DNA of 63,927 nucleotides. It comes from an uncultured Candidatus Saccharibacteria bacterium (GTDB lineage Bacteria; Patescibacteriota; Minisyncoccia; Minisyncoccales; CAYJUL01). Of this stretch, positions 45,173 through 63,927 are shown piece after piece. The stretch is taken from positions 1 to 63,927 of the forward strand of contig CAYNXX010000003.1 in assembly GCA_964401295.1 (NCBI GenBank), written 5' to 3'. Each line of letters opens with the position of its first letter. Positions within the stretch are counted from its first letter, which is position 1. The notes below the pieces were generated by a model that made no database searches, was not told the origin of the DNA, and worked only from the letters and a program-made list of their open reading frames with translations. The position numbers and the translations under genes are program-made.

Positions 45173-45196
45173 AGGCCACGGAAAATTAATTCTTGA

Positions 45197-46231: not shown

Positions 46232-47840
46232 ATTTTATCACTCTTAGGGCATTTTCTTCTGCGCCTAATTGATGAGTAAAAAGATGGACTTCTGCTTGCT
46301 CTGGCGGTTCATAAGGATCGGATATGCCAGTGAAGTGCAAAATTCTGCCCAACCGCGCCTTTTGATAAAGTCCTTTAGTATCCCTTTTCTCGCATATTTC
46401 CAGCGGACAATCACAAAATACCTCTATAAATCTTCCGCCAGCCTCTTCTACTTTCTTTCTCACAAACGATCGCTGCTGGGCATAGGGCGAAATAAATGAA
46501 CAGACAACTGCAACTCCCCTTTTTGTAAATAATGCCGCGAGAGTTGCAACTCTTCTAATATTTTCATCGCGATCCGCTTTTGAAAATCCAAGGTCGCTGC
46601 TTAGATACTCTCTCGCATCATCTCCGTCTAAACGTTCAGCCGGCCATCCGGCTTCTTCAATGAAACGAAAAACATTATTTGCGATTGTTGTTTTGCCAGA
46701 CTGCGATAAACCCGTAAACCATAATACAAATCCCCCTTTTTTGCTCATGGCTGAAGACTGATACCATTGATCTATCAGCGGCTTTCGGCTGCAAGAAAGT
46801 AGATAGAAAATCTCCGGACGCAAAAGAAAAGAGGGCGGTTGCTCCTTTTTTTCAATTAAATCGCGCAGAAGGGTCGCGCTAAAAGATATATCATCGTTCG
46901 TGATGCATTCGCCAGCGAAACGATGCCGTTTTGCGCCGGAACACCACACCACTTCCGGAAACTTCAAAATTTCAATTCCCAATTCTTTTTTTGAGAAGCT
47001 GTCAAAAATCTGCTGAGCCGCGAACGGAAGATAATAATTGCCTACCCCTGCATGATCCCGCCCCACAATAAAATGAGTGCAGCCATAATTTCTCCGCACT
47101 AGAGCATGAAATACCGCTTCGCGAGGACCAGCATAACGCATTTTCAAAAATGCGACTGCCAAAATTGCTCGTCCTTGGGGATAATAATGGTCAAACAGCA
47201 TTTCGTAGCTCGCAAGAATATATTCGTCCTTAAAATCTGCAAGCTTCTTTCTCCCCACGATTGGCTGTAAAAAAAGTCCGTCTGTCACAGATAGCGCTTG
47301 CTGATGTAAAAACTCATGGCCCCGGTGCGGTACATTTCTCGTCTGAAACGCGGCTATTGTTTTCCATCCTTTTTCATGGAAAATCTTTTTTGTTTCGACG
47401 GGCCTAAAATAATATTCCCTAAATTCGTGAACTTCGGGCAAACTTATAGTTTCCAGCTCTCCACCCAATAAATAATTCTTCATCTGGACGAATTCGTCAA
47501 CTCCCGGATGCTTTCTGTCGGCGGTTCCAAAAATTAATCGCGCGCTGCGTTCTTTGTCATACTCGTAAATTTCGATATCCTTGAGCAAACCTATGATTTT
47601 AGATTCCTCATCCTTTAATAAAACCTCATCTTCTTTTTTAAGTCTATCCGCTGTTTGCTGGTCAATATCCAAAATAATCGGAATCGGCCATATCGCTCCG
47701 TTACTAAGCCGCATTTCGGTGCATACGCTTTCAAAATCCTTTTTCTTTAAAAATCCGGAAAGCGGCGCATATACACCGTCTTTAATATTTCTTAGCTCAT
47801 TTATTTTTTCTGCGCTCAACACGAGTTCTTCATGGGCCAT
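46203..47840 (-). CDS. sat/cysC: Bifunctional sulfate adenylyltransferase (ATP sulfurylase) / adenylylsulfate kinase, i.e. a PAPS synthase
   Basis: QTRNVPHRGHEFL and GRDHAGVGNYY (sulfurylase). The C-terminal domain has GLSQSGKTTIAN (P-loop) and FISPY (APS kinase). Confidence 0.9.
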   Translation of the reverse strand: MAHEELVLSAEKINELRNIKDGVYAPLSGFLKKKDFESVCTEMRLSNGAIWPIPIILDIDQQTADRLKKEDEVLLKDEESKIIGLLKDIEIYEYDKERSARLIFGTADRKHPGVDEFVQMKNYLLGGELETISLPEVHEFREYYFRPVETKKIFHEKGWKTIAAFQTRNVPHRGHEFLHQQALSVTDGLFLQPIVGRKKLADFKDEYILASYEMLFDHYYPQGRAILAVAFLKMRYAGPREAVFHALVRRNYGCTHFIVGRDHAGVGNYYLPFAAQQIFDSFSKKELGIEILKFPEVVWCSGAKRHRFAGECITNDDISFSATLLRDLIEKKEQPPSFLLRPEIFYLLSCSRKPLIDQWYQSSAMSKKGGFVLWFTGLSQSGKTTIANNVFRFIEEAGWPAERLDGDDAREYLSSDLGFSKADRDENIRRVATLAALFTKRGVAVVCSFISPYAQQRSFVRKKVEEAGGRFIEVFCDCPLEICEKRDTKGLYQKARLGRILHFTGISDPYEPPEQAEVHLFTHQLGAEENALRVIKFVKENLFNG

Positions 47841-48040
47841 ATATTGCTCTTAAAAAGTCTCGGTCTTTTTCGCAAGAATGATAGGATAACTGAAATAGAT
47901 AGTCACTCCGGTTTATATTTCCGTAAGCTCATAGCCATGGAGGTGAATCCACTATCATATTTTATTTCTCTCAAAAATAAAAACGAGCGTCAAGCAGTGA
48001 AAAGATGAGTGCGTATGTAGTGCCGAGCAGCTGCCTTGCG

Positions 48041-50773
48041 CTATCCGCTAGGCGTAGACGATGCCTGATCAGCTCCGGCCGGCTGCGCGGCGCTAGTGCT
48101 TGTCGATTGGGAATCGTTTACAGTTGGCGATTGCGTAGAGCTCGTTGTGCTAACACCTGCAGCTGTTGTAGTTGCGTTCTCGCTTGCCACACCGCTAGTT
48201 GTGGACGTGGCAATAGATGTAGTGGTGATTGTAGATGTGGTTGTGGTTGTAGCGGTGGGAGTAGACGTAGCGGTGCCAAGCGAGATTATATCGCCGGTGA
48301 TCGTGACGCCGCTCTCCGCGCCGCCCGCAGCTGCGCCATCGGGCGCAGCTGCGGGCGCCAAAGCAGAACTGGTAGAGCTTGCCGAAACGCATTCGCCCTG
48401 AACCAGTGACCAAATGCCGTTTTCAATTTGCGCGCACCAGATTTTGCCGGTTGCCTTGTCAACCATTTCAAGACCTCCTACGCGCGCGGTCCTAGCGAAC
48501 AATTTATCAACCACAAGCTGGCGCAAAGACAAAACGCCATCTTTTATCGTGCCGCCGATGGCCGCCAAAAAATCTTCAAAACCACCCGCAGTACCGGTTA
48601 AGAAACCCTTCAACTGACTAAACAGCGACGCATCGCTGGAAGCGGAGCCAGAAGTAAGGGCATAATTGGAATTTTCCGTACTGCTCGACACAACAATGCC
48701 GATGCCCTGATATTCCTTGCCTTGATCGGTCGGCCAATTACGCCAGTCAAAACGAGGCGCGCTAAGCCGCCATGAAACTTCAAGCGGCTTGTCGCCGAAA
48801 ATAATCAGGCGGTTATTTGCCGGATCTTTTTTATAAGAAACCTTAGCGCCATCCTCGGCCGAGAGCAAAACGCTCAATAAATCCATCTTCTCTCCGAAAT
48901 CTGTAACACGTTTGAATACCCATAAATCAGAGCCTTTCTTGGTCTTATTAAAATCAATAACATAGGCAAATAATCCCTCTTCTAAGCTCGGCAAAAGCTT
49001 GGCATTGCCGGCAACTTCTTCTTTAAGGCCAAGCATACTTGGCCCATAAGTTGCGTAAAGTAAATTATCGATGCTGTACAGCGGGTCCTGAACGCCAAAA
49101 GTAATTTTTGAATTGGCGCCTCCGTCGCCGATTATCAAATTAGTCGTGCTGGCGCTGGTTACCGCGCTGATGGTAAATGCGCTGGTCGCGGAGCGCCACA
49201 TCCTGAGCGGATCAGTCGTCCCAAACTGAATAGCGCTTGAAGAAGCAATCGGCGAGCTGTCAGCAACCGTAAGCAATGTTCCAGGTTGTGTCGTGCCGAT
49301 ACCGACACGTTTATTGGTGCTATCGAAAGTAACATAAGGTGTATTGGTACTATATGTGGCGATCTGAAGAGAGGTCGTAGAATCAGTATCTTGTGGCCTA
49401 ATACGCCCTCCGGCTTTTATCATGAAATCTGGATTGCTATTAAACGCAAATTGGGCGGTGCCGCTAGTATCTCTAATATTAATAAATCCTGCAGCGCCCA
49501 TCTGAATGTAGAGGTTATCATTACTTCCTTGGTATATCCCCCCACCCGTTGGTGCGCTGACGTCAGCGCTATTTCTAAAACGGATCCCTCGATTCCCCGT
49601 CCAATCTCCGTTATCTAGGGCCAGAATTCCACCTACGATATCCAATTTTGCTGACGGTGCTATCGTCCCAATCCCGACTTTGCCGCCTAAGGTTGCGAGC
49701 GTTGTGGTCGCGGTAGTGATTGCGGTTCCAACAACATGCAAGGTGCTAGACGCCTGCGTTGTCCCGATGCCTAAACGATTGTTAGTGTTATCCCAAAAGA
49801 AGTTAGCATTGTTTTGAGCAATAACTCCGCTCACGCCGGCAAACAAAACAGAACCAGAAGTCAGCCCTGAAATAGTCGTGCTTGCGGTTGATAAGGTTCC
49901 TGCCGCAGTAACATTGCCCGAGGAATCAACAAGAAACTTCTGCGTACCATTCACCGCCGCTCCGAAAAGCGTCCAGCCTGCCGTGGCGTTGACCGGGTTG
50001 ATATAGATAGAGCCTTGCGATACGCCGGTGCCTGTCGGCAATGCGTCAAAGGTTATCAAACCGTCTGCATTGTCAGCAACGTCGCTTCGCAAAAATTGGG
50101 TTGAATCCAGATTATCCAATTTATCCGCATCAAACGCTGCGGGTGCGGCACCGAGTTTTTTGCGTGGAATCATTTCTGAATCAGAACCAACGGTAACGCC
50201 AAGCCACAAAGTTTGGCCGAAATCAATGCTCGCCAAACTCGTAAGAGTTCCCAGCATTGTTGAAAATAATCCGGATTTGGTATATATTTGGTTCGTAACG
50301 GTATCGCCATTTGACCAAGTGGAAAATGTGCTATAAACGCAGATAAAATTATTCGTTGTGTCAACCGATTTTATAACCGCGGACTCTTTTTTATTCGTAT
50401 CCCAGAGATATTGGCCTGCCGCCAAGGTGTTTTCGTTGGTGTTATTAGTGTATGCTACTTTGTCGTCGCCGCCACAGTTAGTTGCATCAGACTTAGTAAA
50501 AGTTATGTTTGTGTCTGTGAAAAGCGCGGATGCGATCCAAGATTCGGTCCAAATCGCGATTCCCCCGCCGGCCGCGGCGTAAAGCTTGAAAACCATATCC
50601 CGCGTCGCGTCCGCGACCGCCACTCCGGTTGAATCAGTAAGTTTGCCCTGATAATTTAGCTCGGGGTTGAAAGCGGCGCGCGAAATTTGATTGGCTCCAA
50701 AAATAAGTCCGCCAAATATAGCTACGACTACGACTAAAATTATTGTTATTTTATTTTGGAACCATTTTTCCAT
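48041..50773 (-). CDS. Large N-terminally anchored surface fibre protein with tail-fibre-like motifs and an S/T/A-rich tail
   Basis: N-terminal TM segment. It has three xxxGIGTxxxxxxLxV motifs (NNRLGIGTTQASSTLHV, GGKVGIGTIAPSAKLDI, NKRVGIGTTQPGTLLTV). The C-terminal 120 aa or so are low-complexity S/T/A. Confidence 0.6.
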   Translation of the reverse strand: MEKWFQNKITIILVVVVAIFGGLIFGANQISRAAFNPELNYQGKLTDSTGVAVADATRDMVFKLYAAAGGGIAIWTESWIASALFTDTNITFTKSDATNCGGDDKVAYTNNTNENTLAAGQYLWDTNKKESAVIKSVDTTNNFICVYSTFSTWSNGDTVTNQIYTKSGLFSTMLGTLTSLASIDFGQTLWLGVTVGSDSEMIPRKKLGAAPAAFDADKLDNLDSTQFLRSDVADNADGLITFDALPTGTGVSQGSIYINPVNATAGWTLFGAAVNGTQKFLVDSSGNVTAAGTLSTASTTISGLTSGSVLFAGVSGVIAQNNANFFWDNTNNRLGIGTTQASSTLHVVGTAITTATTTLATLGGKVGIGTIAPSAKLDIVGGILALDNGDWTGNRGIRFRNSADVSAPTGGGIYQGSNDNLYIQMGAAGFINIRDTSGTAQFAFNSNPDFMIKAGGRIRPQDTDSTTSLQIATYSTNTPYVTFDSTNKRVGIGTTQPGTLLTVADSSPIASSSAIQFGTTDPLRMWRSATSAFTISAVTSASTTNLIIGDGGANSKITFGVQDPLYSIDNLLYATYGPSMLGLKEEVAGNAKLLPSLEEGLFAYVIDFNKTKKGSDLWVFKRVTDFGEKMDLLSVLLSAEDGAKVSYKKDPANNRLIIFGDKPLEVSWRLSAPRFDWRNWPTDQGKEYQGIGIVVSSSTENSNYALTSGSASSDASLFSQLKGFLTGTAGGFEDFLAAIGGTIKDGVLSLRQLVVDKLFARTARVGGLEMVDKATGKIWCAQIENGIWSLVQGECVSASSTSSALAPAAAPDGAAAGGAESGVTITGDIISLGTATSTPTATTTTTSTITTTSIATSTTSGVASENATTTAAGVSTTSSTQSPTVNDSQSTSTSAAQPAGADQASSTPSG

Positions 50774-50797
50774 ACTTTTTTGTCCTACGTTTTAAAT

Positions 50798-50818
50798 GTT
50801 TAAAGTGTCACTTTAAAC
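50798..50818. repeat. Perfect 21-bp palindrome GTTTAAAGTG-T-CACTTTAAAC, copy a
   Basis: Exact match to the copies at 54714, 59596 and 60472. Pairing extends to 50795-50821. It lies 25 nt upstream of the start codon at 50773. Confidence 0.9.
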
Positions 50819-52431
50819 ATTGGGGCGTCGTTTCTAGAAAGTTGCTGAATTAATCTTATTCGCGACGGCTTATCCTGTTGTCTGGTCGGCGGGATTTGCG
50901 CCGATGTTAAGATTGATCTTTGGGGCGTTGACCGCGCAACGGCCCGCACTTGCGCCGGTGCCTGCGGCATATGTGCAGTCTGAATAGCGGGTCGGCGCAG
51001 GATCGGCTGATGCGCAGATGGCGCCTGTGACGCGGGCGCCGCTTTATTACGCAATTTTTTTAATTTTTTCGCGGCGAGCAATAAAATCAGCAATAGTAAT
51101 ATATATGGAAGCCATCGCCAGATTCCCGGGCGAACCGGCTGTGGCGCTGGTGCCATAGCTGCCAGCAAAATCTCTATTTCCCCTGCCATGCGTTTTCTGA
51201 CCTGATTTTTAAAATCCATCACGCTGATGTAAAGCGGATAAGTTATTGGGCTATCGGGTGGAAAAATTCTTGCCTCGTATGCGGTTTTATCACCATTGAT
51301 GCGCAAAATAAAGGAAAATAATCTTCTCGTTGCCAGCGCCTGAGCCAGCGAAGCCTGCTGATTTTCCAATCCACTCTGATCTGTAGATTTGACATCTGCA
51401 TTACGGTCCTGCGGTTTTTCCAAAGTAACCAGTATGGTTTTTAAAACTTTCGGTGCTTTTTCATAGGCAAGTTTTACCGTAATCGGTGGACCTATCTGCG
51501 CCTGTACTTTTCCCTCGATCATCGGCAAACGTTTTCCTTCCTGCCAGAATTCAAAATCGGATAACTGCAGCGCTTTAAGTTCGGGCAGAATCCCTGCGGT
51601 TGGCGGAAAAAGTTCGGGGGGCACAGTTGTCGGCGCGCCGGGCGTGGCGAACGCGATCGCGCCAGATGCATACTTGCCAGATTTATCATAGGCGAAAGCC
51701 GTATAATAATAACCCACGCCGTTGATCAAACCATTATCAACAAACGATTCGCCATTAGAATTATAGATAACTTCGCCGTCGTAGAGATCCTGTGGATAAA
51801 AGAAAGTGCTGCGCAAAATTCTCACTCCTTTGAAATTTGGATCCTTCGGATTTTGCCAGGTTAAATTTACCTGCCCATCGCCGGCCACCGCCTGGAAATT
51901 TTGCACGTTTGGCGGTGGCGCTGGCACAAATAATGTTCTAAAGGTTTTATCCGTGGTAAAGCCCAACCTGTTTTTGTTATCTCGCGCTTCAATCTTGAAG
52001 TGATATAAAGTGTCTTGGTTTAAATCTATAAGCGCAACCGAGTGTTCGGTGGAAGGTTTTATTTCGGCAATCGTTTCAATTTCATATTCGGCGGTGCGTC
52101 CCAAGAAAAATTGTGAAATAGCCGGCTTTGACGTTTTCCAAGAAATAATCGCGCTGTTATAACTTGGCCTTACAACAATATCCGTGATACGCGGGGGAAA
52201 TATATCCACGAATCCTCCTCCCGGGATGGACACAGGACAATCCGTAGGACAGTTCGTTGAGTTTTCTCCCGACTCGCAAATACCATTGCCGCAGACTGGC
52301 CCGACAACACTAGCTACGACATCTTGCGTAATAATCACTTTGTCCGAAGTTAAATCAGCGCTCGTTTCTGAAAACCCCGTCAACGAAGCCGCAAATGCAA
52401 ATATTAAAATGTAAATCAAGATCTGCTTCAT
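50800..52431 (-). CDS. Secreted/anchored protein with FN3-like domains, a C-terminal TM segment and a P/Q/A-rich tail
   Basis: Signal peptide, Cys knot CGNGICESGENSTNCPTDC, FN3-like PPPNVQNFQAVAGDGQVNLTWQNP...YYYTAFAYD, TM segment WLPYILLLLILLLAA. The last 6 codons and the stop lie inside palindrome copy a. Confidence 0.65.
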   Translation of the reverse strand: MKQILIYILIFAFAASLTGFSETSADLTSDKVIITQDVVASVVGPVCGNGICESGENSTNCPTDCPVSIPGGGFVDIFPPRITDIVVRPSYNSAIISWKTSKPAISQFFLGRTAEYEIETIAEIKPSTEHSVALIDLNQDTLYHFKIEARDNKNRLGFTTDKTFRTLFVPAPPPNVQNFQAVAGDGQVNLTWQNPKDPNFKGVRILRSTFFYPQDLYDGEVIYNSNGESFVDNGLINGVGYYYTAFAYDKSGKYASGAIAFATPGAPTTVPPELFPPTAGILPELKALQLSDFEFWQEGKRLPMIEGKVQAQIGPPITVKLAYEKAPKVLKTILVTLEKPQDRNADVKSTDQSGLENQQASLAQALATRRLFSFILRINGDKTAYEARIFPPDSPITYPLYISVMDFKNQVRKRMAGEIEILLAAMAPAPQPVRPGIWRWLPYILLLLILLLAAKKLKKLRNKAAPASQAPSAHQPILRRPAIQTAHMPQAPAQVRAVARSTPQRSILTSAQIPPTRQQDKPSRIRLIQQLSRNDAPMFKVTL

Positions 52432-54686
52432 TTGGTCTTTGCTGGATTTTGATTGGAATTTTGATCCGGACTTGGCGCCGTCAATTTTTCGGCATCAGCC
52501 TTCAATTTATCTGCGTAAAACGGGTAAACCTCGATCGCCTTTTGATATATATCTTTGGCCGTATTTTGATCCCCGAGCTGCCCGAAAAGCCAGGCCGTTG
52601 CTTCAAAAAATGTAATCTCTGGGCTGGCTTCCTGACGCATACGCGCTATGGTTTCGGGACTAAATCCCGGTAATTGTTTCAATAATTCTTTAACCCCGCC
52701 CATCCTCTCTGTGTATTTGAGCTCAATTCCGTTTTTAAAGTGCTCCGCGGCTTTCTGTGATTGACTAGAGCGCAGGTATACGATACCCATAATTCTTTGC
52801 ATTTCAAAAGCATCTTGAGGTCTTTGTAATGAAAGTTGATAGCCGCGGTTAAAATACTCTTCGCCTTTGGCGTAATCTCCTTCATAGATGTAAAAACGGC
52901 CCAAAATATAATAGTATTGCAGCCATTGTTTGTTAAAAGCCAGGGCCTTTTTTGATATATCCTCTCCTTCGCGCAGAAAATCTTTATTTTGACTGACCAG
53001 ATAGAGCCATTCGTCAGATCTAGCGGCAGCTTCATAGAAATTAAGGTACCTTATCTCCGGCTGATCCAAACTTTTCAGCAGTTCCGGCCGGAACTGCGCA
53101 AGATTTTCCAAGATTTCTTTTTGCCATTGGCCGCCGGCCTGCTGATCAAGAACTGTAAGATCGCGCCCGACCATATTAAGAAGGATTTCTCTTCTGTACT
53201 GAGTGGTGCGATCCATGGCGCGCTGGTAATACTTAAGCGCGCCCGGAAAATCTTTCTGTTCCATAAAAAATCCACGCACCGTATCATAGCTTGCGAGGAC
53301 CGATTTTACATTGACAAAATATATGCTTAAAATCGCCAATGGCAGAAACGCTATAATGATTGCCTGTTTTAACGGCGCCAGATTCACTGGGAAACGCCGC
53401 TCGACGAAATAATTATTATTAACAAAGGCAAGTACGAGAAATAAAACAAGATAAGTGCTAAGAGTATCAAATGCAAAAATATTCTGTAAAAAATATGAAA
53501 TAAATAACGATATTAAGAGGAAAGTCGGAAGCTCCCCCATTTTTTTCCTACCACGCCATAAAGCCGCGAAGGCTAAAACTAGAATTAAAATATAACTTAA
53601 TGCGCCAACCATTCCGGTCTCGGCCATAAAATTTAAAATCTCATTATGCGCATCGCTAAAAACGTAATAAGCCTGAATATATTGCTGATAACGAGCTTCG
53701 AAATATTTGTAATAAAGATAGTTGAAAGATTCGGCGCCCCAACCAAATATAGGTCTGTCGCGCCATGCTTTGATCGCTGTTTCCCATCCTGGGAAACGAC
53801 CCATTATGCTGGCCGGATTAAATCCCTGCAAGAATCTAGCGCCTAACGATCCTTGTTTAAAAAGGATTTTTGATTCAAACACAATAAGCAAGAGCAATAA
53901 AATGCTTATTGCCAATGCGCCGATTAAAATATATTTTCTGAGGTTTTTTCTTGAATTAAGAAGCGGTAGGAAATAGAAAAAACCCGTTATTGCAAGCCCC
54001 AATAAAAGACCCAGGAGCGCAGACCTCCCGCCAGACAAGAAAAGAGCGACTGCTTCAAGTGCGGCAAGCGCAAGCCAGACATTTCTTAAAATTTTTTCCT
54101 TTTCAACGGCAGCAAGATATAAAGCCAGAAAAATAGTCATTGCCAGAAAAAAACCGAAATAAACTGGATTGGAAAGAGTCCCGCTTATTCTGCCCGTCTG
54201 AATACCCACCCCGTAAAATCCAGCTATGCCTAGTTTTTGGACGAATCCAGCTAAGGTGGAAACAAAACTTATCAGCACTATTGCGCGCAAAGGAAACAAC
54301 CAACTATTATATGTCTGGAAAAGACCTGATGCGATTACAAAAAAAACTAAATAATGCAAAATTGTCACAAGGCCGCCACCACCCTCTAAACTTCCCCAAA
54401 AACTTCGTATAATGTTAAATCCAGTGATAGAAGATATAAGCATTGCGGCGAAAAATATCAGTAACATGCCCGTCAATAAGGTAAATTTTGGGGCATAACG
54501 GCTATCTATTAACAGCAAGATCAGATATAAAATTGCCACCACCTCAACTGCGGTTCTAAAATATATGGTTTTTGGATATTCCGAGAAAGATAAACCGAAT
54601 GGTCCCAAAACCAATGGCGCGAATAAGGTAATAAAAATCCCTATTTTTGCGGCTTCGAAAATATATTTTTTAATATTCTTCTCCAT
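52428..54686 (-). CDS. Second O-antigen ligase family (Wzy_C) membrane protein with C-terminal TPR repeats
   Basis: SGGRSALLGL and DAHNEILNFMAETGMVG motifs, with the same architecture as 37069-39336. ATGA overlap with the downstream FN3 gene. Confidence 0.8.
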   Translation of the reverse strand: MEKNIKKYIFEAAKIGIFITLFAPLVLGPFGLSFSEYPKTIYFRTAVEVVAILYLILLLIDSRYAPKFTLLTGMLLIFFAAMLISSITGFNIIRSFWGSLEGGGGLVTILHYLVFFVIASGLFQTYNSWLFPLRAIVLISFVSTLAGFVQKLGIAGFYGVGIQTGRISGTLSNPVYFGFFLAMTIFLALYLAAVEKEKILRNVWLALAALEAVALFLSGGRSALLGLLLGLAITGFFYFLPLLNSRKNLRKYILIGALAISILLLLLIVFESKILFKQGSLGARFLQGFNPASIMGRFPGWETAIKAWRDRPIFGWGAESFNYLYYKYFEARYQQYIQAYYVFSDAHNEILNFMAETGMVGALSYILILVLAFAALWRGRKKMGELPTFLLISLFISYFLQNIFAFDTLSTYLVLFLVLAFVNNNYFVERRFPVNLAPLKQAIIIAFLPLAILSIYFVNVKSVLASYDTVRGFFMEQKDFPGALKYYQRAMDRTTQYRREILLNMVGRDLTVLDQQAGGQWQKEILENLAQFRPELLKSLDQPEIRYLNFYEAAARSDEWLYLVSQNKDFLREGEDISKKALAFNKQWLQYYYILGRFYIYEGDYAKGEEYFNRGYQLSLQRPQDAFEMQRIMGIVYLRSSQSQKAAEHFKNGIELKYTERMGGVKELLKQLPGFSPETIARMRQEASPEITFFEATAWLFGQLGDQNTAKDIYQKAIEVYPFYADKLKADAEKLTAPSPDQNSNQNPAKTK

Positions 54687-54742: not shown

Positions 54743-55501
54743 TTAATTTGGCGTGGCTGTTACGATTATCATAGCTGTATAAGTTCCTGCTGTTTGAGTA
54801 TTGGCGGATCCAGACATTGCCTCTACTTTAATAGTTGTATTGGTGCCGGACGGCTGATTTGCAAAGAGCGAATTGGAAATATTTACGTCTGAGGTGGCAA
54901 AATTATACCAGCAAGCATCCGACGTATTACCAGAACCAACTCCGCATGTTGAACCATTATCAAGGAACTTTTGAACAACATCGGTTCCTTCGGGCGTAAA
55001 TCCGAATTCAGAAGTATTGTTGGCAATAGAAAAGCTAAAATCAGACGTTCCGGATTGAGCCGGCGTATAATCGGCAAAACTATTCCCTCCGCTTTTAAGC
55101 GCTGGCGCCGTAGAGGCCCGCGCAGTAAGCGTATAACCAGCCAAATTGTCGGTTATAACGGTCCAGCTGGCGGATCCTGTGGCCGCTCCCCCGCCTATAC
55201 CTGGAATAACCTGAGACATAGTGATATCCGGAGGCGCACTGATGGAAATAAAGGTTTCAGCCATTTGTTGATAACCAGATTTTATTTTATAATTCGCGCT
55301 TTGCGATTCATCGCTGCCTATTTCACCGATTGTATCTTTGCTTAAATAACTTGATGATTTTTGATCAATGCCTCCTATATTTATTGAATCTGATGGTATG
55401 CGATAATTTTGGCTGGACATAAAAGCCAAAACGGGATTTACCGCAAAAAAAGCGGAAATCCCGAATAAAAGTGATATAAATGTGGTGATAGTTTTGTTCA
55501 T
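54743..55501 (-). CDS. Secreted surface protein, paralogue of 56670-57347 (WxL-like by architecture)
   Basis: Signal peptide and N-terminal SxNYxI...SANYKI motifs. Blocks shared with the paralogue include ITMSQVIPGIGGGAATGSASWTV, FADYTPAQSGTSDF, FLDNGSTCG...DACWYNFAT and GTYTAMIIVTAT. Confidence 0.5.
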   Translation of the reverse strand: MNKTITTFISLLFGISAFFAVNPVLAFMSSQNYRIPSDSINIGGIDQKSSSYLSKDTIGEIGSDESQSANYKIKSGYQQMAETFISISAPPDITMSQVIPGIGGGAATGSASWTVITDNLAGYTLTARASTAPALKSGGNSFADYTPAQSGTSDFSFSIANNTSEFGFTPEGTDVVQKFLDNGSTCGVGSGNTSDACWYNFATSDVNISNSLFANQPSGTNTTIKVEAMSGSANTQTAGTYTAMIIVTATPN

Positions 55502-55557
55502 TGCATATATGTTGTAAACACGTTGTAGACATTATCTTAGAGACTGCACGCAGAGAC

Positions 55558-55586
55558 TTGACATAGAATATGGGGGGGGGCATTAT
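55558..55586 (+). promoter_or_regulatory. Promoter-like element with a G9 homopolymer inside the 17-bp spacer
   Basis: TTGACA (55558-55563), spacer TAGAATATGGGGGGGGG (G9 at 55572-55580), CATTAT (55581-55586). Confidence 0.3.
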
Positions 55587-55655
55587 CAAAATGAAGGCTC
55601 TTGACGCAAAAGTGGCTTAATTTTTACTGTGGGCTACCGATGCGCGGGTCTTCAT

Positions 55656-55690
55656 CCTCCGACTGCAATCGGAGGGTTTATTTTATTTTT
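55656..55690 (+). terminator. Plus-strand intrinsic terminator inside an all-minus-strand gene array
   Basis: CCTCCGA-CTGCAA-TCGGAGG followed by GTTTATTTTATTTTTT. On the minus strand no U-run follows. Confidence 0.45.
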
Positions 55691-56666
55691 TAAATTTTAT
55701 TTCTATCTTGCGCAATAATAAAATAATTATAAATACTATTAAAATTATTGCCGCGAGGCCAACAGCCATGATTTTCCAGGGAACCACCCAAAAATCAACT
55801 TCTTTTTGGTCAATAATATTCTCATATCCCCTGTTTAAACTTAGCGTTGCCGTATAACGTCCCCAAAGCCAGGGCTTATCCCACGTAATCTCGCGCGTCC
55901 GCAAAGAGGTCGGCATTGAGAAAAAAGAATCAACGGGCGCTTCTCCTACCTCTTTACCTAAAAGATTTTTTATTTTGATTGCGCCGTATGGCACAACGTG
56001 AATACTACCGTCATTTTGGTAGGCCAAACTGAAAGAGATCGGTCCTTTTGAATAAAATCTCGCCTGATTTGTAAGTTTAAAACTTTTTAAATAAGCATTC
56101 GCTTGCACTTCGCCGTTCACTCTTACAAAAAATAAACTGGCAATACGAGTTTTCACCGTAACGCTTCCGCTGACATTTTCTGCATTTTCTGTGCTCGTGG
56201 CTCCAGGATTGGTAGATACCAGTATTGCTCCATATCTTCCACCCGGTTCTGCGTCTGACGGCACGTTGACACTTACCTTAAAATTAATTCTCTGGCCGTG
56301 AGCCAATGTAAACTCCGTTATTTCCGGCTTTAAATAATCTTTAAGAGAATAGAGACCCTTTTGATCGCCCAAAAGAACAACTGTCTGCGTCGGATCATAC
56401 GAACCGGTAAAATCTTCTGTTTGTATTTTAAAACTCATCGTCCTGCCCAGTCTATTCATAACGTAAAAATCTTTCACTGCGCTTTCGCCAGGATTTAAGA
56501 AGAATTCGTTTCTCGTTGGACCGACAACAAAATCATTAAGATTGGTGGGTACATCGGGAACTCCCTCTATGCTGTATGCCAAAATAGACGGCGCGCCAAA
56601 AAACATACCGCTTAATATCAACAGAGAACCAATGAAAAATATTTTATTTTTGGTCCAGATGCGCAT
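55683..56666 (-). CDS. Two-domain beta-rich surface protein with a C-terminal TM anchor (DUF916/DUF3324-like architecture)
   Basis: Signal peptide and two Ig-like-looking halves (FLNPGESAVKDFYVMN..., PSDAEPGGRYGAILVS; second half ...GRYTATLSL...FWVVPW). It ends in a C-terminal TM segment plus a basic tail, LLRKIEIKFKK. Confidence 0.5.
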   Translation of the reverse strand: MRIWTKNKIFFIGSLLILSGMFFGAPSILAYSIEGVPDVPTNLNDFVVGPTRNEFFLNPGESAVKDFYVMNRLGRTMSFKIQTEDFTGSYDPTQTVVLLGDQKGLYSLKDYLKPEITEFTLAHGQRINFKVSVNVPSDAEPGGRYGAILVSTNPGATSTENAENVSGSVTVKTRIASLFFVRVNGEVQANAYLKSFKLTNQARFYSKGPISFSLAYQNDGSIHVVPYGAIKIKNLLGKEVGEAPVDSFFSMPTSLRTREITWDKPWLWGRYTATLSLNRGYENIIDQKEVDFWVVPWKIMAVGLAAIILIVFIIILLLRKIEIKFKK

Positions 56667-56669
56667 AAT

Positions 56670-57347
56670 TTATGGGTTATCCGTTGCCGTAGCAGTAATC
56701 TGACTCTGATATGTTCCGGATGTCTGCACTTTTGTTGCTCCGGTTTGCGCCCTGAATTTTATAACCTCGGCTTCTCCGCTTGGAGAGGTAGAGGCAGAAC
56801 GATTAATAACCGTGTAGCCAGCAGTGGCAAAACCAAGCCAGCAGGTATCCGTTCCGGCACTTGCGCCAGTACCGCAGGCACTACCATTGTCCAAAAATTT
56901 CGCAACTGTATCCGCGGCAGTCTGGGCTTCAACTGTATAGCCGAAAGCAGAGGCGGCTGAAGCAACGGTGAAAGCATAATCCGGCGTACCGGACTGCGAT
57001 GGACTATAATCCGAAAAACTATCCGTACTGCTGTGTAAGGCCGGCGTTGAACTGGAATTGGCAAGGCTAAAACTGAATCCTGTGCCGTTTGCGGTTTTGA
57101 CGGTCCACGTACACTGACCCGTAGCCGTGCCGCCACCAAGACCAGGAAGGGTTTGCGACATCGTAAAATTAGCGCAGTCGGTAATGGATATTGCCGAACT
57201 TACCACTTGCGTTATGACAACCGCATCGCTCGCGGTCGCGCCGGCGAGATATTCCGGCTCAAAAAGAATCCCGCTGCCAAGGATAAGAAGCAATAATGCG
57301 AAAGAAATGCTTAATACTTTTGAAATGCCTAATATTTTTATTGTCAT
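56670..57347 (-). CDS. Secreted surface protein, paralogue of 54743-55501 (WxL-like by architecture)
   Basis: Signal peptide; FTMSQTLPGLGGGTATGQCTWTV, FSDYSPSQSGTPDY, FLDNGSACG...DTCWLGFAT, GTYQSQITATAT. Confidence 0.5.
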   Translation of the reverse strand: MTIKILGISKVLSISFALLLLILGSGILFEPEYLAGATASDAVVITQVVSSAISITDCANFTMSQTLPGLGGGTATGQCTWTVKTANGTGFSFSLANSSSTPALHSSTDSFSDYSPSQSGTPDYAFTVASAASAFGYTVEAQTAADTVAKFLDNGSACGTGASAGTDTCWLGFATAGYTVINRSASTSPSGEAEVIKFRAQTGATKVQTSGTYQSQITATATDNP

Positions 57348-57369: not shown

Positions 57370-58317
57370 TTAGTTTTTCAGCGGAACCATCATATATATA
57401 TAGCTCTGCTGAGCGACTTCGCGGAAAATCGGACGGATAATCCCAGATGTTTCATCTTGCGGTTCAATCGTGACCTCATCAGAAAAAGATTTTGAAAGTT
57501 TATCTTTTAACACTTTATCCTTATCGCTTGACGGCACCACCACCAATCCTTCTTTGCTGCCGGTAATGCGGGTGATGCCCACGTCTTCTCTGAAAGTATC
57601 AAAGCGTTGTTGAATATCATTTATAATTCCCTGCTCCAGCTGATTTGTCTGATTCACGGCATCTCCGGTTGCTAGCAAGTTATTTTGTGTCGGCGGTGGC
57701 GATTTTCCGAAAACGAGAGATTTGGCGCTATTGAAAATATTTTTAATACTCTGCCAAAAACTTGAAGCATCGGCCAAAGCATTTGTCTCACTGATAGAAC
57801 CGGTAAGATTTATTACGCTTGCAATGATACGTTGCAAATTTTCTATTTCCAGCCTCCCATAATTTTGGACAGTATTTCCCGTTGGCACTAATGAATGGTT
57901 GTTGGCATATGGAATCGCGACCCATATCCCAAACAGAATAATCGTCAATAAAATTGCTGCGCCAATGTGTATTAATGGATTAATCGTTTTAAGCAGTCCG
58001 GCGGTATTATATTGTAAATTCGGCTCGCCGACCGGTAAATTTATCGGCGGATATGATTCCAGTTTCTTAATGATTTTAGGTTGTAAAGAAATCTCCATCA
58101 ATGTTTGTTTCTTTATGCTTTTCGTTTCCGGCGCATACATTCCAATTGTTTTAATATATTCTTTTAGCCACTCTTCCGTAGTTACCCAATTTCTGCCAAT
58201 TTTTACTGATTTCAATTTTCCTTGCCGCGCGCGCAAACTTAAATATTCCTGCGAATAATCGCATTGACTAGATGCTTGCGTAAGAGAAATATATTTTATA
58301 TTTTTTATATTTTCCAT
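57370..58317 (-). CDS. Membrane-anchored protein with an N-terminal excisionase/MerR-type helix-turn-helix
   Basis: YISLTQASSQCDYSQEYLSLRARQGKLKSVKIGRNWVTTEEWLKEY (HTH_17-like), one TM segment (IGAAILLTIILFGIWVAI), and an extracytoplasmic C-terminus of about 170 aa. Confidence 0.5.
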   Translation of the reverse strand: MENIKNIKYISLTQASSQCDYSQEYLSLRARQGKLKSVKIGRNWVTTEEWLKEYIKTIGMYAPETKSIKKQTLMEISLQPKIIKKLESYPPINLPVGEPNLQYNTAGLLKTINPLIHIGAAILLTIILFGIWVAIPYANNHSLVPTGNTVQNYGRLEIENLQRIIASVINLTGSISETNALADASSFWQSIKNIFNSAKSLVFGKSPPPTQNNLLATGDAVNQTNQLEQGIINDIQQRFDTFREDVGITRITGSKEGLVVVPSSDKDKVLKDKLSKSFSDEVTIEPQDETSGIIRPIFREVAQQSYIYMMVPLKN

Positions 58318-59646: not shown

Positions 59647-60393
59647 TCAAGATAGTTCGATAAAAATAGGATCTGTGTGGTATTTTTTCTTCTCTAGATA
59701 ATTTTTGGTTAATTTTTTGAGTTCCTCATTTGTTAAGGCTATGCCGCCGGCGAAACAATCATTTATCCATTGGCGCTCACCCATCAAAAGAGATGTTCTA
59801 GCCCCAAACAGGTCTTGGAAGCTGGAATAAGGATACTGTTCCAAAAAATCAAAAAAATCGTTCCATTCTCCCACTCCAAGCTTTTTCCAATCCGGTTTCC
59901 AAACATCTATTGCGTTTTTAATGTTTATATAAAATATTAGCCTTGCCAACTGAACATCATCCTTACATAATACCAACCTATATGGTCGTTCAAAAACATT
60001 TCCAGTTCTGTGATGTTTATTATTGAAATATTTTGAAAAAGCTGTTTTCATTTTTTGTGTATATTTGGAAATACCATTTTTAGTATAGGGAGAGACAAGC
60101 AAATGGAAATGATCACGGACCAATATAAAACTCAATATATTTACCAATGGAGGATGTTCTCTGGTAATTAGATTCTTCTGTGGTTCTAAACCGTTTAATA
60201 TTGCATGGACAGCCCTAGTAGTGTCTTCTCTATATATATTAAGATTTGGTCTGCCTATATTTGCGGCATACATATAAAATAAAAAGCGGTCTCGATCAGC
60301 CTCATTATCAAAAACTGCCTTAGAGTCTATGCCCCTATTATAGATATGATAAAAGGCTCCTTTTTTAAAAATAGAATTTCGCGAGATAGACAC
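59647..60393 (-). CDS. IS200-like Y1 (HUH) transposase family protein, RAYT-like
   Basis: FYHIYNRGIDSKAVFDNEADRDRFL..., HUH-type DHFHLLV, ...HRTGNVFERPYR..., ARLIFYINIKNAI (the YIHxNP-like region). The gene is flanked on both sides by the palindrome. Confidence 0.65.
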   Translation of the reverse strand: MSISRNSIFKKGAFYHIYNRGIDSKAVFDNEADRDRFLFYMYAANIGRPNLNIYREDTTRAVHAILNGLEPQKNLITREHPPLVNILSFILVRDHFHLLVSPYTKNGISKYTQKMKTAFSKYFNNKHHRTGNVFERPYRLVLCKDDVQLARLIFYINIKNAIDVWKPDWKKLGVGEWNDFFDFLEQYPYSSFQDLFGARTSLLMGERQWINDCFAGGIALTNEELKKLTKNYLEKKKYHTDPIFIELS

Positions 60394-60562: not shown

Positions 60563-60961
60563 CTAGAAGGTTATCTCTAGGGCGCGACTAACTTCTTTAT
60601 AATAACCTACGGAACGCAAAATTACAGGACCCGTTTGGACAAGCGTAACTTGGTAACAAACGTCTTCTTTGTCTTGAAGACCGATCGGGCAAGTTGTGGC
60701 TCCTCCGCCATTGCCATTCATATCTATAAACCCGGCGTAAGTAAAACCTGCGCCTTGTGTTGAATAATTCTTTTCATAAAGATCTCTCTCAATACCACTA
60801 TCGGCTGCATATAAACTTATGGTTGAAAAACCAATTGTTTTAAGAAGCTGGAGCTGTCCAAAAATAATCGTAGCAACGCCAAGCGCAATCGCCAATAAAA
60901 CCGCCAAAAACGCTAAAGCCAGATACAAAGATACACCTTTTTGCGAGTTAAAATAAAGCAT
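60563..60961 (-). CDS. PilX-N-like minor pilin / pseudopilin-like protein
   Basis: N-terminus QKGVSLYLALAFLAVLLAIALGV resembles the PilX N-terminal segment. Small beta-rich body. Last gene of the pilin-like triplet. Confidence 0.4.
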   Translation of the reverse strand: MLYFNSQKGVSLYLALAFLAVLLAIALGVATIIFGQLQLLKTIGFSTISLYAADSGIERDLYEKNYSTQGAGFTYAGFIDMNGNGGGATTCPIGLQDKEDVCYQVTLVQTGPVILRSVGYYKEVSRALEITF

Positions 60962-60967
60962 TATTAA

Positions 60968-61546
60968 TTATTGCGCTAGGTTTAAATCTCTTTGACTTAT
61001 AGTGGATTGCACATAAACCGATGCTTGTTCTTCATATCTCTGGCCAACTCTTTGCACCTGCAGTAAAAAAGTTACGCGCGGCTGAAGCAAGCCTTGATCT
61101 GCCACAGCTGCTCCATTAAGCATCAGTTTAAAACTCAAGACCTTTAAAGAGGAGCCGGTTATTATATTTTCTGTACCAGCCCGCGATTCTTTAAGCTTAC
61201 CTACGGTTTGGTCTAGAAAAATTTCTTCGCATTCCTGACGATCGTTGATAAATTTTATGCCCAAGCCATCGCGGCTAAGTTCGTAGTTTGTTCCGGCCGC
61301 GGATAGACAACTGGCATCCGAAGCTTTCTTAGCCGTTCTCAAAGATCTTGAAATATATTCTGTAACATAACTGACTTGATCCAAAAGTTCTTGCCGGACT
61401 AAAATTTTTCGCTGAATGCGTATGGCAAAGATAAAAAGGCCGGCAACCATCGTGGTGACGATCGCGAAGACAGCCACACTCACCATAAGTTCAATCAGGG
61501 TAAAGCCTTTTTTTCTGCGTTGAACTGCTAGGTTTGTCATCTCCAA
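60968..61546 (-). CDS. Prepilin-type N-terminal cleavage/methylation domain protein (PilW/GspJ-like minor pilin)
   Basis: KKGFTLIELMVSVAVFAIVTTMV class-III signal. Confidence 0.75.
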   Translation of the reverse strand: MEMTNLAVQRRKKGFTLIELMVSVAVFAIVTTMVAGLFIFAIRIQRKILVRQELLDQVSYVTEYISRSLRTAKKASDASCLSAAGTNYELSRDGLGIKFINDRQECEEIFLDQTVGKLKESRAGTENIITGSSLKVLSFKLMLNGAAVADQGLLQPRVTFLLQVQRVGQRYEEQASVYVQSTISQRDLNLAQ

Positions 61547-62109
61547 TTATATAAAATTTCTTTGGCTACAAATTTATTAGTCTGCCCGCGTTCATCCCAA
61601 CTAACAGTAACGGTTATCTCAAGTTTATCCCATGGCTTCGTTAAAACAGTTTTTACGCTGCTAATAGTTCTTTTAAAATTAGTCTGTTTTCCGCCGATAT
61701 AATAACTGTAAAATCCATTGCTATCCAGAGTTAAGTAAGTGCTGGCAAGAGCCGGGTCGCAAGGGGTGGCCGACTCAACCATGGTGTAATCTATGCCGCA
61801 GTCCGCGGCCGTACCCCCATTCCAATTATCATCAATAAGCCAGTGATAATCCCTGACATTTCTCATCAACTCCAGACCCTCTTGCGCAAGATAAACGGCG
61901 GTTAGGCGCGAAGAAAGCATATTGGAAATGGAAAGACTTTGATTTACAAGCGCAAAAACGCCTACGACTCCGATCACAAGCACAAAAGTTGCGGCTATAA
62001 CTTCAATAATAGTAAAACCGTAAGGTGATTGTTTAAACATTTTTATTTTTGACAAGCCGGGTCCGCGCAAACAACAAGACCTATGATACTCAGCAGCTGA
62101 TCCATCCAA
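61537..62109 (-). CDS. Prepilin-type minor pilin (PilV/GspI-like)
   Basis: SPYGFTIIEVIAATFVLVIGVVGV class-III signal. The real start is most likely the ATG at 62040 (MFKQSPYGFT), 2 nt after the upstream stop. Confidence 0.7.
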   Translation of the reverse strand: MDGSAAEYHRSCCLRGPGLSKIKMFKQSPYGFTIIEVIAATFVLVIGVVGVFALVNQSLSISNMLSSRLTAVYLAQEGLELMRNVRDYHWLIDDNWNGGTAADCGIDYTMVESATPCDPALASTYLTLDSNGFYSYYIGGKQTNFKRTISSVKTVLTKPWDKLEITVTVSWDERGQTNKFVAKEILYNWR

Positions 62110-63927
62110 ACTACCAATGGATTGCCATCGTTGCCTATGGCCAAATTTATCCCTCTAGAACCGTTGGATCCCCCGGGAAGTTCTACCGTAGTGTTTCCGG
62201 CCGAGCAAAGATTATCGCCGCATTTGGTTAAACAAGTATACTGATAGGATGACGTACAATAACCGAAATAAGCAATGGTCAGCGTGTTATCTGCGGCAAT
62301 AGCCAAATCACCACCATACACGTTGGCAAGGGAAAATGTTTGATTGCCGGAAGAGCAGGAAGCGTCGCCGCAAACAACAATCTTATCGCCATAAAGTATT
62401 CTGGGCTTGCCATCCAAACCAATAGCAATCTTGATCAGGCCCGAGGCCTGATCAAAACTCCCCGTGGAAGCACCAACGGTGTTTATAATATTGCCGGAAG
62501 AACAGGAAGGATTACCGCATTTTGCAACTTTAACATACGTAGTGACCGGAAGCGAAAGCGAACTGGAAGCATAAGCAATAATTGGGTTTCCATCCTGACC
62601 AATGGCAATGTCTAAAGAGGCATCAATCATGCTAACTGTGGCGATAGTAGTTGTTGCATTGCCAGAAGAGCAGGAAAAGTTGCCGCATTTTGCAACTCGA
62701 ATAGTCCATGCGCTGTTAATATAGGCCGAATATGCAATTACCGGATTTCCGTCCTGACCAACGGCAAAAGAAATGTCAGCATCATTGTTAATAGAAGCCG
62801 GGTCAGGAGTATTGAGCGTATTTGCCAAGGAACAAGCCTCGTTGCCGCATTTTATAACCTTAAGCCCCGATCCGTCCGGTGAATAGACAATTACAGGTTT
62901 GCCGTCTTTTCCAATACCTATCGGCAAACCACGTGGTGAGGAAATGTACTGACCGCTAGTAGCATCAATAAATGTCTTTTTGCGGTTTCCGGAACAAAAT
63001 GGATCGGCGCATTTAACAACATTAACTCCGACATTAAAACCGCCGCCAGCGCTTTGCGTAGCGTAAGAAATCACGGGATTTCCGTCAGCGCCTATGGCAA
63101 TTCCAGGCCCCGCTGTGCTAACAACCGTGTCAGAAGCAATCGTGTAGTTTCTATCAAAAGAAGAACAGGTATCAGAAGTGCAATGAAAAACAGAAATGCT
63201 ACTGCCATAAGACTGATTCCATTGATCGCTACGTCCAACTATTGGATTATTTGAAGAATCGAGAATAAGGGCGAAGGCGCCGAAAAGATAAGTGCTAGAA
63301 TCCGGTCCGATATCAGCGCTTGCGCGGCTTGAACAGGAATCATTATTGCATTTTACAACGATATTATCCACAACGAATGTATTCTGATCGGATGAGGTAT
63401 AGATAAAGGTCGGATAACCGTTTGTTTTTTTTGCAAGGCCGCCCACTGAAAAAGCAGCGGTTGTTGAGCTTTGAATTGAAACGGTGGTTTTCGATGAACA
63501 AGAAGCATTAGAACATTTTGCGGCGTAAAGCGCGTAAGATTGACCTAAAAGCTGGCCTTGATTCCATTTTACATAGGCATAATCATATATAATAACGGGG
63601 TTGCCGTCGCTAGCGAAAGTTACCTGACCGTTCCAGCCATAAACATAAGTGATGCCATTGCTATCTTGAGTTGCGGTGGTCGGACCGGCAATATTAGATA
63701 CGCTATTGCCGGAAGAGCAGGAAGGATTGCCGCATTTAAGAACTTTAAAAGTAAAAGTTTCTTGATATGTAGGATAACCGCTGGTCTGGGTATCTGTCAT
63801 ATAAAGAAGTATAGGTTTATTATCTGCTCCAACGGCTAAAGCCTCGAGGCCAGATGAACTATCAAGATTATTGTTTGTATTGCCGGAAGAACAGGAAGGG
63901 TTGCCGCATTTTATCAAATTCAAACCA
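62043..63927 (-). CDS. Large repeat protein, 5'-truncated by the window end: at least 12 units of about 45-55 aa, each with a C-x4-C loop (beta-propeller-like)
   Basis: Recurrent (V/A)KCGNPSCSSGN and (I/A)(A/I)xGxDGNP(V/I)IAY motifs. The frame is open to nt 63927, and the tracked first Met is a TTG inside a repeat. Confidence 0.7.
   Translation of the reverse strand, partial: GLNLIKCGNPSCSSGNTNNNLDSSSGLEALAVGADNKPILLYMTDTQTSGYPTYQETFTFKVLKCGNPSCSSGNSVSNIAGPTTATQDSNGITYVYGWNGQVTFASDGNPVIIYDYAYVKWNQGQLLGQSYALYAAKCSNASCSSKTTVSIQSSTTAAFSVGGLAKKTNGYPTFIYTSSDQNTFVVDNIVVKCNNDSCSSRASADIGPDSSTYLFGAFALILDSSNNPIVGRSDQWNQSYGSSISVFHCTSDTCSSFDRNYTIASDTVVSTAGPGIAIGADGNPVISYATQSAGGGFNVGVNVVKCADPFCSGNRKKTFIDATSGQYISSPRGLPIGIGKDGKPVIVYSPDGSGLKVIKCGNEACSLANTLNTPDPASINNDADISFAVGQDGNPVIAYSAYINSAWTIRVAKCGNFSCSSGNATTTIATVSMIDASLDIAIGQDGNPIIAYASSSLSLPVTTYVKVAKCGNPSCSSGNIINTVGASTGSFDQASGLIKIAIGLDGKPRILYGDKIVVCGDASCSSGNQTFSLANVYGGDLAIAADNTLTIAYFGYCTSSYQYTCLTKCGDNLCSAGNTTVELPGGSNGSRGINLAIGNDGNPLVVWMDQLLSIIGLVVCADPACQK

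Follow-up and report, generated by a model that had tools for sequence, protein, structure and literature searches.

The 63,927-nucleotide (nt) stretch of DNA analysed here, designated below as the window, ends inside a large open reading frame (ORF) made of tandem repeats, each marked by a C-x4-C motif, which directly precedes three genes resembling the minor pilins PilV, PilW and PilX. The question raised by this locus is whether the product of the repeat ORF is displayed by a type IV pilus or owes its position beside pilin genes to other causes. The initial annotation had treated the repeat ORF and the three pilin-like genes as a single range (60563-63927) and proposed a pilus-tip adhesin analogous to PilY1. 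According to the present analysis, the chances are about even that a pilus presents this protein as a lectin-like adhesin with disulfide-stapled tandem propellers, which would carry a GspH-type pilin module or act as a PilY1-like partner. This explanation is built on the repeat itself, the predicted fold of a C-terminal propeller, the tight packing of the genes, the synteny observed in relatives and the pilin-propeller fusions present in the repeat family. The features concerned are listed below.

62043-63927, minus strand: C-x4-C propeller-repeat ORF, with 627 codons and a TAA stop at 62045-62043; 5'-truncated, open at the window end
62046-63164, minus strand: C-terminal seven blades, predicted to form a complete propeller, amino acids (aa) 255-627; C-x4-C loop between two strands in each blade
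63165-63927, minus strand: five more divergent blades, aa 1-254; matches 1-5 of the blade model
61537-62040, minus strand: PilV/GspI-like minor prepilin, 167 aa, leader MFKQSPYG/FTIIEV; TIGR02523 PilV E 3.4e-8, below cut-off
60968-61540, minus strand: PilW/GspJ-like minor prepilin, 190 aa, ...RRKKG/FTLIEL; passes the curated cut-off of N_methyl PF07963 (E 4.5e-10); TIGR02532 E 1e-7
60563-60961, minus strand: PilX/GspK-like small protein, 132 aa, hydrophobic N-terminus KG/VSLYLALAFL, no Glu5

Repeats and predicted fold

The repeat ORF contains 12 C-x4-C motifs spaced by 49-73 aa, in units of about 54 aa, and 24 of its 26 cysteines are located within these motifs. When the residues of the ORF were shuffled 20,000 times, the motif was obtained 0.97 times on average and 6 times at most. 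A blade hidden Markov model (HMM) of 54 residues, trained solely on homologues, tiles the ORF with 12 matches. Eight of these are strong (independent E-values of 1e-8 to 7e-16), units 4, 5 and 11 are degenerate or weak, and unit 1 is weak and cut by the window end. The at least 12 tandem units claimed in the initial annotation are thus confirmed by both counts, against a chance expectation of about one motif. The blade consensus encountered reads ...TSIAIGxDGLPVISYYDxxxxxLKVAKCGNxxCSxGNTxTTVD and is arranged in units of seven.

The last 373 residues of the ORF were aligned with 70 homologues, and the 14 cysteines of the seven C-x4-C pairs are invariant throughout the resulting alignment of 71 sequences. 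AlphaFold2 modelling of these seven C-terminal units returned a mean predicted local distance difference test (pLDDT) value of 89.5 and a predicted template modelling (pTM) score of 0.90, with 28 strands forming seven four-stranded blades, and a seven-bladed propeller is confidently predicted for this half. The repeats had been read as the blades of one or two propellers. The C-terminal one is borne out, being reproduced in the full-length AlphaFold2 model, but the second is not, as residues 1-259 remain below a pLDDT of 50 in that model. Since C-x4-C counts in the family cluster at 7 and 14 (see below), aa 1-254 probably represent blades 3-7 of a second, N-terminal propeller, the two first blades and the leader of which would be located beyond the assembly. 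Each blade is most likely stapled by its C-x4-C loop in the form of a short disulfide. A four-cysteine metal site shared by neighbouring blades was also considered and appears unlikely, as seven pairs cannot be evenly paired and both cysteines flank a five-residue loop in one blade.

The predicted propeller was compared to the PDB using Foldseek. The best matches are the Photorhabdus PLL/PHL/PLL2-5 fucose lectins (E 5e-9 to 1e-7, TM-score 0.54-0.70, about 360 columns, 10-14% identity), next to which rank propeller glycoside hydrolases, sialidases and polysaccharide lyases (E 4e-7 to 3e-6). PilY1 is not among the 50 best matches. PDB sequence and family-profile searches gave no meaningful match to the window protein or to the repeat family, and the NCBIfam beta_propeller_lectin model NF052348 matched weakly, below curated membership (19.4 bits for a cut-off of 200, E 4e-4). 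No Pfam family was obtained at E ≤0.01 for the 627-aa product, PF05567 included, in agreement with the earlier statement that the repeat is unrelated to PilY1 in sequence.

Gene packing and the three minor-pilin genes

The TAA stop codon of the repeat ORF (62045-62043) is separated by 2 nt from the ATG of the PilV-like gene at 62040, as had been noted earlier and as reading of the junction confirmed; the PilW-like and PilX-like genes are next on the same strand. The TGA of the PilV-like gene overlaps the PilW-like ATG as ATGA (61540-61537; MTNLAVQRRKKG/FTLIEL), and a 6-nt gap lies between the PilW-like stop and the 132-aa PilX-like gene, which starts at 60961. These spacings (a 2-nt gap, a 4-nt overlap and a 6-nt gap) are compatible with the translational coupling proposed initially but do not prove it, and no clear Shine-Dalgarno sequence was seen before 62040.

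A class III leader of the type G/F-T-x-x-E followed by a hydrophobic helix is present in both the PilV-like and PilW-like genes, and the Logan gene call of the latter is likewise 190 aa long. The PilX-like protein has no family match in Pfam or NCBIfam. Its orthologues (122-155 aa) are located after the PilW-like gene at loci L069, L070, L072, L073, L075 and L119 and have the motifs YAADSGIE and ...EITF in common; sequence reading and synteny are the only basis of its K-type (PilX-like) assignment. On the strength of the operon synteny described below, the assignment of the three genes to the PilV, PilW and PilX types is retained, in the form of conserved GspI/J/K-type minor pilins of a Candidate Phyla Radiation (CPR) type IV pilus.

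Operon synteny in relatives

Eighteen homologues of the PilV-like protein of the window were found, the best named one originating from Wildermuthbacteria. Genetic contexts were inspected in seven relatives (L069, L070/L071, L072, L073, L074, L075 and L119), which display a common order: pilM/N/O, pilB, pilT and pilC precede genes for one or two small pilins and pilD, and these are followed by a GspH/FimT-like gene (178-199 aa) and the PilV-like, PilW-like and PilX-like genes. At L074, a gene of 476 aa stands in place of the PilX-like one. Most relatives then have rodA and/or ligA and a Wzy/TPR gene or rpoBC. The PilV-W-X-like genes, rodA, Wzy/TPR and rpoB/rpoC are common to the window and its relatives, and the window ends at the point where the GspH-like gene and the pilus machinery are expected. 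On account of this synteny with seven relatives, the propeller gene is assigned to the pilus operon, in the slot of the GspH/FimT-like minor pilin. The gene order equivalent to pilV-W-X-Y1 that had been suggested was therefore abandoned, as the propeller gene precedes pilV in this slot and does not follow pilX. Given this position, the chances of a modular minor pilin and of a non-pilin resembling PilY1 are roughly equal.

Two further observations concern the same operon in the relatives and in the window. The GspH/FimT-like pilin of the Wildermuthbacteria locus (L070:2217-3353) is 378 aa long and displays a C-terminal extension with a weak PKD match (PF18911) and 'GYAWSENVGWI'-type repeats; from its sequence, this operon slot is thus filled at L070 by a minor pilin of modular build. 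In the window, the PilX-like gene and rodA are separated by a gene (59647-60393, minus strand) that resembles IS200/Y1 or REP-associated tyrosine transposases (PF01797, E 6.5e-7). At L069 and L070, rodA directly follows the PilX-like gene; L070 has a Y1_Tnp-like gene, together with a toxin gene of the ParE/YafQ type, immediately upstream of its PilV-like gene.

The C-x4-C repeat family

An exhaustive HMMER scan of 1.84 billion cluster representatives retrieved 3,094 proteins at E ≤1e-3, each standing for a cluster at 50% identity, with 2,133 at ≤1e-10 and 515 at ≤1e-30. The family members are spread over many bacterial and archaeal phyla. Neither a dedicated curated model nor a solved structure was found for this family, a few members of which have weak PF09151 (DUF1936) or BNR_4 matches. 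Among 238 family representatives, 151 contain seven C-x4-C motifs, 39 contain six and 15 contain 14. Nearly all complete homologues start with an N-terminal signal peptide or membrane anchor, and the usual member combines a Sec signal peptide with exactly 7 or 14 blades. Export of the homologues is thus supported by these predicted termini, and a cytoplasmic protein was rejected since the homologues carry signal peptides.

A prepilin N-terminus combined with a C-terminal seven-blade module was identified in four of the 238 representatives (P0119, P0304, P0317 and P0372), three of which are located in pilus or minor-pilin loci. P0317, encoded at the Saccharibacteria locus L045, has a PilV-like N-terminus and belongs to a pilB-pilC-pilin locus. 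P0304 has a GspH/FimT-like N-terminus (hhalign probability of 95.6% to a CPR GspH-like profile) and directly follows pilB-pilC. P0372 comes after a prepilin of 178 aa, and P0119 is located on a short contig. Elsewhere in the family, judging from their sequences, the members that abut minor pilins (L045, L078 and L079) are covalently part of a pilin.

Much longer members were also encountered. At the Peribacteria locus L010 (19,989 nt), a blade ORF is open across the whole locus (more than 6,662 aa, 68 C-x4-C motifs), and further giant ORFs are found at L032 (23 motifs) and L009 (17 motifs). Another surface protein of this kind bears a relationship to the window. A 315-aa ORF located after rodA in the window (57370-58317, minus strand) has a helix-turn-helix-like N-terminus and a transmembrane anchor that are 51% identical (E 7e-24) to the protein encoded by L119:6920-12640. 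The latter, a 1,906-aa surface protein, also follows rodA in the same syntenic block and carries a C-x4-C seven-blade propeller. This arrangement suggests that the propeller module is shuffled among the surface-protein genes that surround the minor-pilin operon.

Missing N-terminus and assembly break

The database gene call of the propeller protein (P0001) starts at the internal M43 and comprises 585 aa on a 126,470-nt contig, which fits a contig end at or near the end of the window. The region is present in four runs of one mine-drainage metagenome. In two of these, the Logan unitigs are fragmented within the propeller gene and end, in either run, 59 nt beyond the window. Exact-match scans of genome and metagenome contigs with the last 78 nt retrieved no 5' continuation. 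For the PilX-like protein, the sole records found were Logan unitigs from the runs SRR5161805 and SRR5161795 (2.5 and 1.8 kb).

The unitigs of two runs of the same sample were also compared to the window. They display 31 clustered differences and a compensated pair of 1-nt deletion and insertion between 62141 and 63782, all within the propeller gene except that at 62141 and none in the three pilin genes. About half of these differences alter the amino acid sequence, chiefly at residues 94-101, 177-186 and 324-332. They reflect either strain microdiversity of the adhesin or repeat cross-talk in the assembly.

Favoured explanation and alternatives

In the favoured explanation, the product of the repeat ORF would be exported and would be composed of tandem seven-bladed propellers, probably with 14 blades in total. 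Its gene would be expressed together with those of the core minor pilins (PilV-like, PilW-like, PilX-like) that belong to a CPR type IV pilus, and the protein would be displayed at the pilus tip as a lectin-like adhesin recognizing a glycan on the surface of a partner or host cell. Display could be achieved in two ways. The missing N-terminus could be a pilin module of the GspH/FimT type, the protein then being a modular minor pilin, and a little less than half of the explanation is allotted to this option. The other part, a little more than half, is allotted to a separate Sec-exported protein that would dock on the minor-pilin complex in the manner of PilY1. A broader proposal can be put forward tentatively, and with more doubt than the explanation itself: heptabladed propellers of the C-x4-C type would constitute a new and very widespread family of disulfide-stapled glycan-binding modules, repeatedly grafted or docked by CPR bacteria on the tip complex of their type IV pili for the recognition of host cell walls, of which the window would provide the first 14-blade version at the GspH/FimU position. 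If true, the pilus tip would possess a high-avidity 'double lectin' without counterpart in studied pili.

A number of observations weigh against display on a pilus. To assess the linkage to pilins, ORFs with a class III leader were searched for in 68 loci from genomes representing species and in 78 loci from metagenomes, the flanks extending to 10 kb at most. A prepilin ORF was found within 3 kb of the propeller ORF at one of these 146 loci (L045), the prepilin ORFs of L112 and L119 being more than 5 kb away, and the co-occurrence of the repeat with prepilin genes in other genomes, which the initial annotation had proposed as a check, is thus rare: the family as a whole is overwhelmingly unlinked to pilins. 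About 28 members carry 11-15 C-x4-C motifs, as expected of probable double propellers; none of them has a prepilin motif, and most of the complete ones have hydrophobic Sec-type N-termini. The nearest propellers belong to giant non-pilin surface proteins, namely P0002 (41-45% identity) and the L119 protein (38% over 360 residues). A search for GspH-propeller fusions with a GspH-like profile found the C-x4-C repeat in none of the 120 matches listed. Within the 64-kb window, pilB, pilC and pilD are absent, and synteny alone places them upstream. The N-terminus of the window protein lies beyond the assembly, and no export signal, be it of class III or Sec type, is visible. The relatives also display variable stretches between pilD and pilV and after pilX, occupied by large surface proteins with fn3/TIG or Ig-like domains and by genes for a Y1-type transposase-like protein and a toxin; given these stretches, the adjacency to the minor pilins could result from an insertion. 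Finally, the sole basis of the lectin assignment is a fold similarity at 10-14% identity.

Most of these points lend weight to an independent surface or secreted lectin-like protein, exported by Sec or held by an N-terminal anchor of its own, which would be encoded near the pilins through a hot spot of surface genes and would not be located on the pilus. Because the flanks of the operon are variable and a Y1_Tnp-like gene is present in the window (59647-60393), such an insertion is a serious rival, and we regard it as a considerable possibility, though one short of even chances. It agrees with the 145 of 146 family loci devoid of a prepilin ORF within 3 kb, with the lack of prepilin motifs in the 11-15-motif members and the Sec-type termini of most complete ones, with the nearest homologues being modules of giant proteins and with the unrelated surface-protein, transposase and toxin genes found around the minor pilins of relatives. 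Against this stands the 2-nt same-strand spacing to the PilV-like start within an otherwise conserved four-gene block, which is tighter than the insertion of an unrelated gene would predict. The propellers are moreover pilin-fused at all three loci of the family that abut minor pilins, and the analogous propeller pilin of TM7x functions in host binding.

Two other alternatives were weighed and both are improbable. Instead of a binding module, the protein could be a propeller enzyme that attacks glycans of the cell wall or capsule, such as a sialidase, a lyase or another glycoside hydrolase, and there are indeed propeller enzymes among the Foldseek matches and numerous glycan biosynthesis genes in the neighbourhood. 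These matches nevertheless rank below every lectin of the PLL family, no Pfam or NCBIfam enzyme family matches the sequence, the near-identical blades include no obvious unique catalytic blade, and arrays of up to 68 blades, as found in the family, are typical of binding or structural repeats. It is equally improbable that the gene is a 5'-truncated remnant or a collapsed-repeat assembly artefact, without a functional full-length protein. The gene call from the internal M43, the breaks inside the gene in the contig and in the unitigs from two runs, and the clustered differences with their compensated deletion/insertion pair, confined to the propeller gene, would fit such a remnant or artefact. 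The frame is however open over all 627 visible codons with every cysteine pair intact, the coverage is even (about 11-15x in run X1) and the C-terminal half folds at a pTM of 0.90, while assembly breaks are common in tandem-repeat genes.

Comparison with known systems

The closest described case is PilX2 of TM7x (Nanosynbacter lyticus, Saccharibacteria T4P-2), a minor pilin with a PLL-like heptabladed propeller that has been proposed as a pilus adhesin and the deletion of which roughly halves host binding (PMC11623550). Both systems associate a large PLL-like propeller protein with a CPR type IV pilus locus. Compared by description, PilX2 is pilin-like, its signal peptide is non-canonical and its one propeller is made of RCC1-type repeats (PMC11623550), whereas the window protein has at least 12 C-x4-C blades of 54 aa. 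The window gene is, in addition, located in the GspH slot and belongs to a lineage that appears Parcubacteria-like from the best named homologue of the PilV-like protein.

PilY1/PilC (PF05567, IPR008707), the tip adhesin of proteobacterial type IVa pili, has a seven-bladed propeller, is encoded together with the core minor pilins and is considered to reside on the tip complex (Treuner-Lange 2020, via a citing paper; PMC8179133). The window protein resembles it in its seven-bladed fold and in being encoded beside core minor pilins. It differs in having no PF05567 match, a gene before pilV instead of after pilX (the pilY1 place in the fimU-pilVWXY1 operon) and no visible vWA-type N-terminal domain, and probably also in its cysteine-stapled blades and tandem propeller. 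Membership in the PilY1 family was rejected for lack of a PF05567 match and on account of the different gene order. To the extent that the pilus-presented explanation holds, for which the chances are put at about even, the protein would work like PilY1 or like a modular pilin without being a member of the PilY1 family.

In modular type IV pilins such as PilB and PilC of S. sanguinis, a functional module is grafted on a pilin for display at the tip, and an 860-aa pilin of Falkowbacteria contains 12 copies of a repeat motif (PMC8179133). The window protein similarly carries a non-pilin module, the propeller, at its C-terminus, and four members of its family are fused to a pilin; the module is a propeller, unlike the vWA or ConA-like domains of S. 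sanguinis PilB/PilC. The resemblance to the PLL/PHL lectins (PDB 5c9l, 5mxg, 6rg2 and 8q83) consists of seven four-stranded blades of about 50 aa in a superposable predicted fold. Those lectins are soluble oligomers with one inter-subunit disulfide, in contrast to the C-x4-C loop present in each blade of the window protein. The present case differs in its propeller family (C-x4-C blades in place of RCC1-type ones), its probable tandem arrangement, its lineage and its operon slot; a propeller-bearing minor pilin (PMC11623550) and repeat-module pilins (PMC8179133) were already known in CPR.

Other genes in the window

A surface-glycan cluster extends over 39264-54686 on the minus strand and comprises a fused ATP sulfurylase/APS kinase, a sulfotransferase, a dTDP-glucose 4,6-dehydratase, five glycosyltransferases and a Wzy_C/TPR protein. 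This gene content implies a sulfated surface polysaccharide as the predicted product. The cluster also includes a 910-aa ORF with no family match and a 543-aa ORF with weak fn3 and Pur_ac_phosph_N matches only.

A 252-aa ORF (54743-55501, minus strand) shows weak NCBIfam matches to CPR_pilus_PamT (E 4e-10, 39 bits for a cut-off of 240) and Pam_pilin_C, and the two ORFs upstream of it on the same strand (55683-56666 and 56670-57347) have no family match. A donor-strand 'Pam' pilus has recently been described in Saccharimonadia and Microgenomatia (bioRxiv 10.64898/2026.03.03.709456), and the genes at 54743-57347 may be Pam pilus genes in a Parcubacteria-like genome.

The third prepilin gene of the window (35687-36553, minus strand; 288 aa, MIMKRG/FTIIELL, GspG-like E 8e-15) is flanked by a DUF1554-like ORF of 449 aa, a cupredoxin-like ORF of 140 aa and a second Wzy_C gene. 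At 33-2541 on the plus strand, an ORF resembling the terminase large subunit (PF03237, E 2e-8) adjoins a large serine recombinase (Resolvase, Recombinase, Zn_ribbon_recom), and this region may be the edge of a prophage or integrated element.

Significance

CPR bacteria (Patescibacteria) live attached to other microbes, and the way in which they recognize their hosts is mostly obscure. The foremost candidates for this role are type IV pili whose minor pilins resemble lectins, with a single experimental case, PilX2 of TM7x. As a propeller adhesin on a pilus tip is an established concept, the gain is incremental: the locus would carry the pilus-lectin theme to a Parcubacteria-like lineage and to another propeller family. 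The latter is an unannotated repeat family of more than 3,000 clusters at 50% identity, and knowledge of its structure and glycan specificity would help to annotate many surface proteins.

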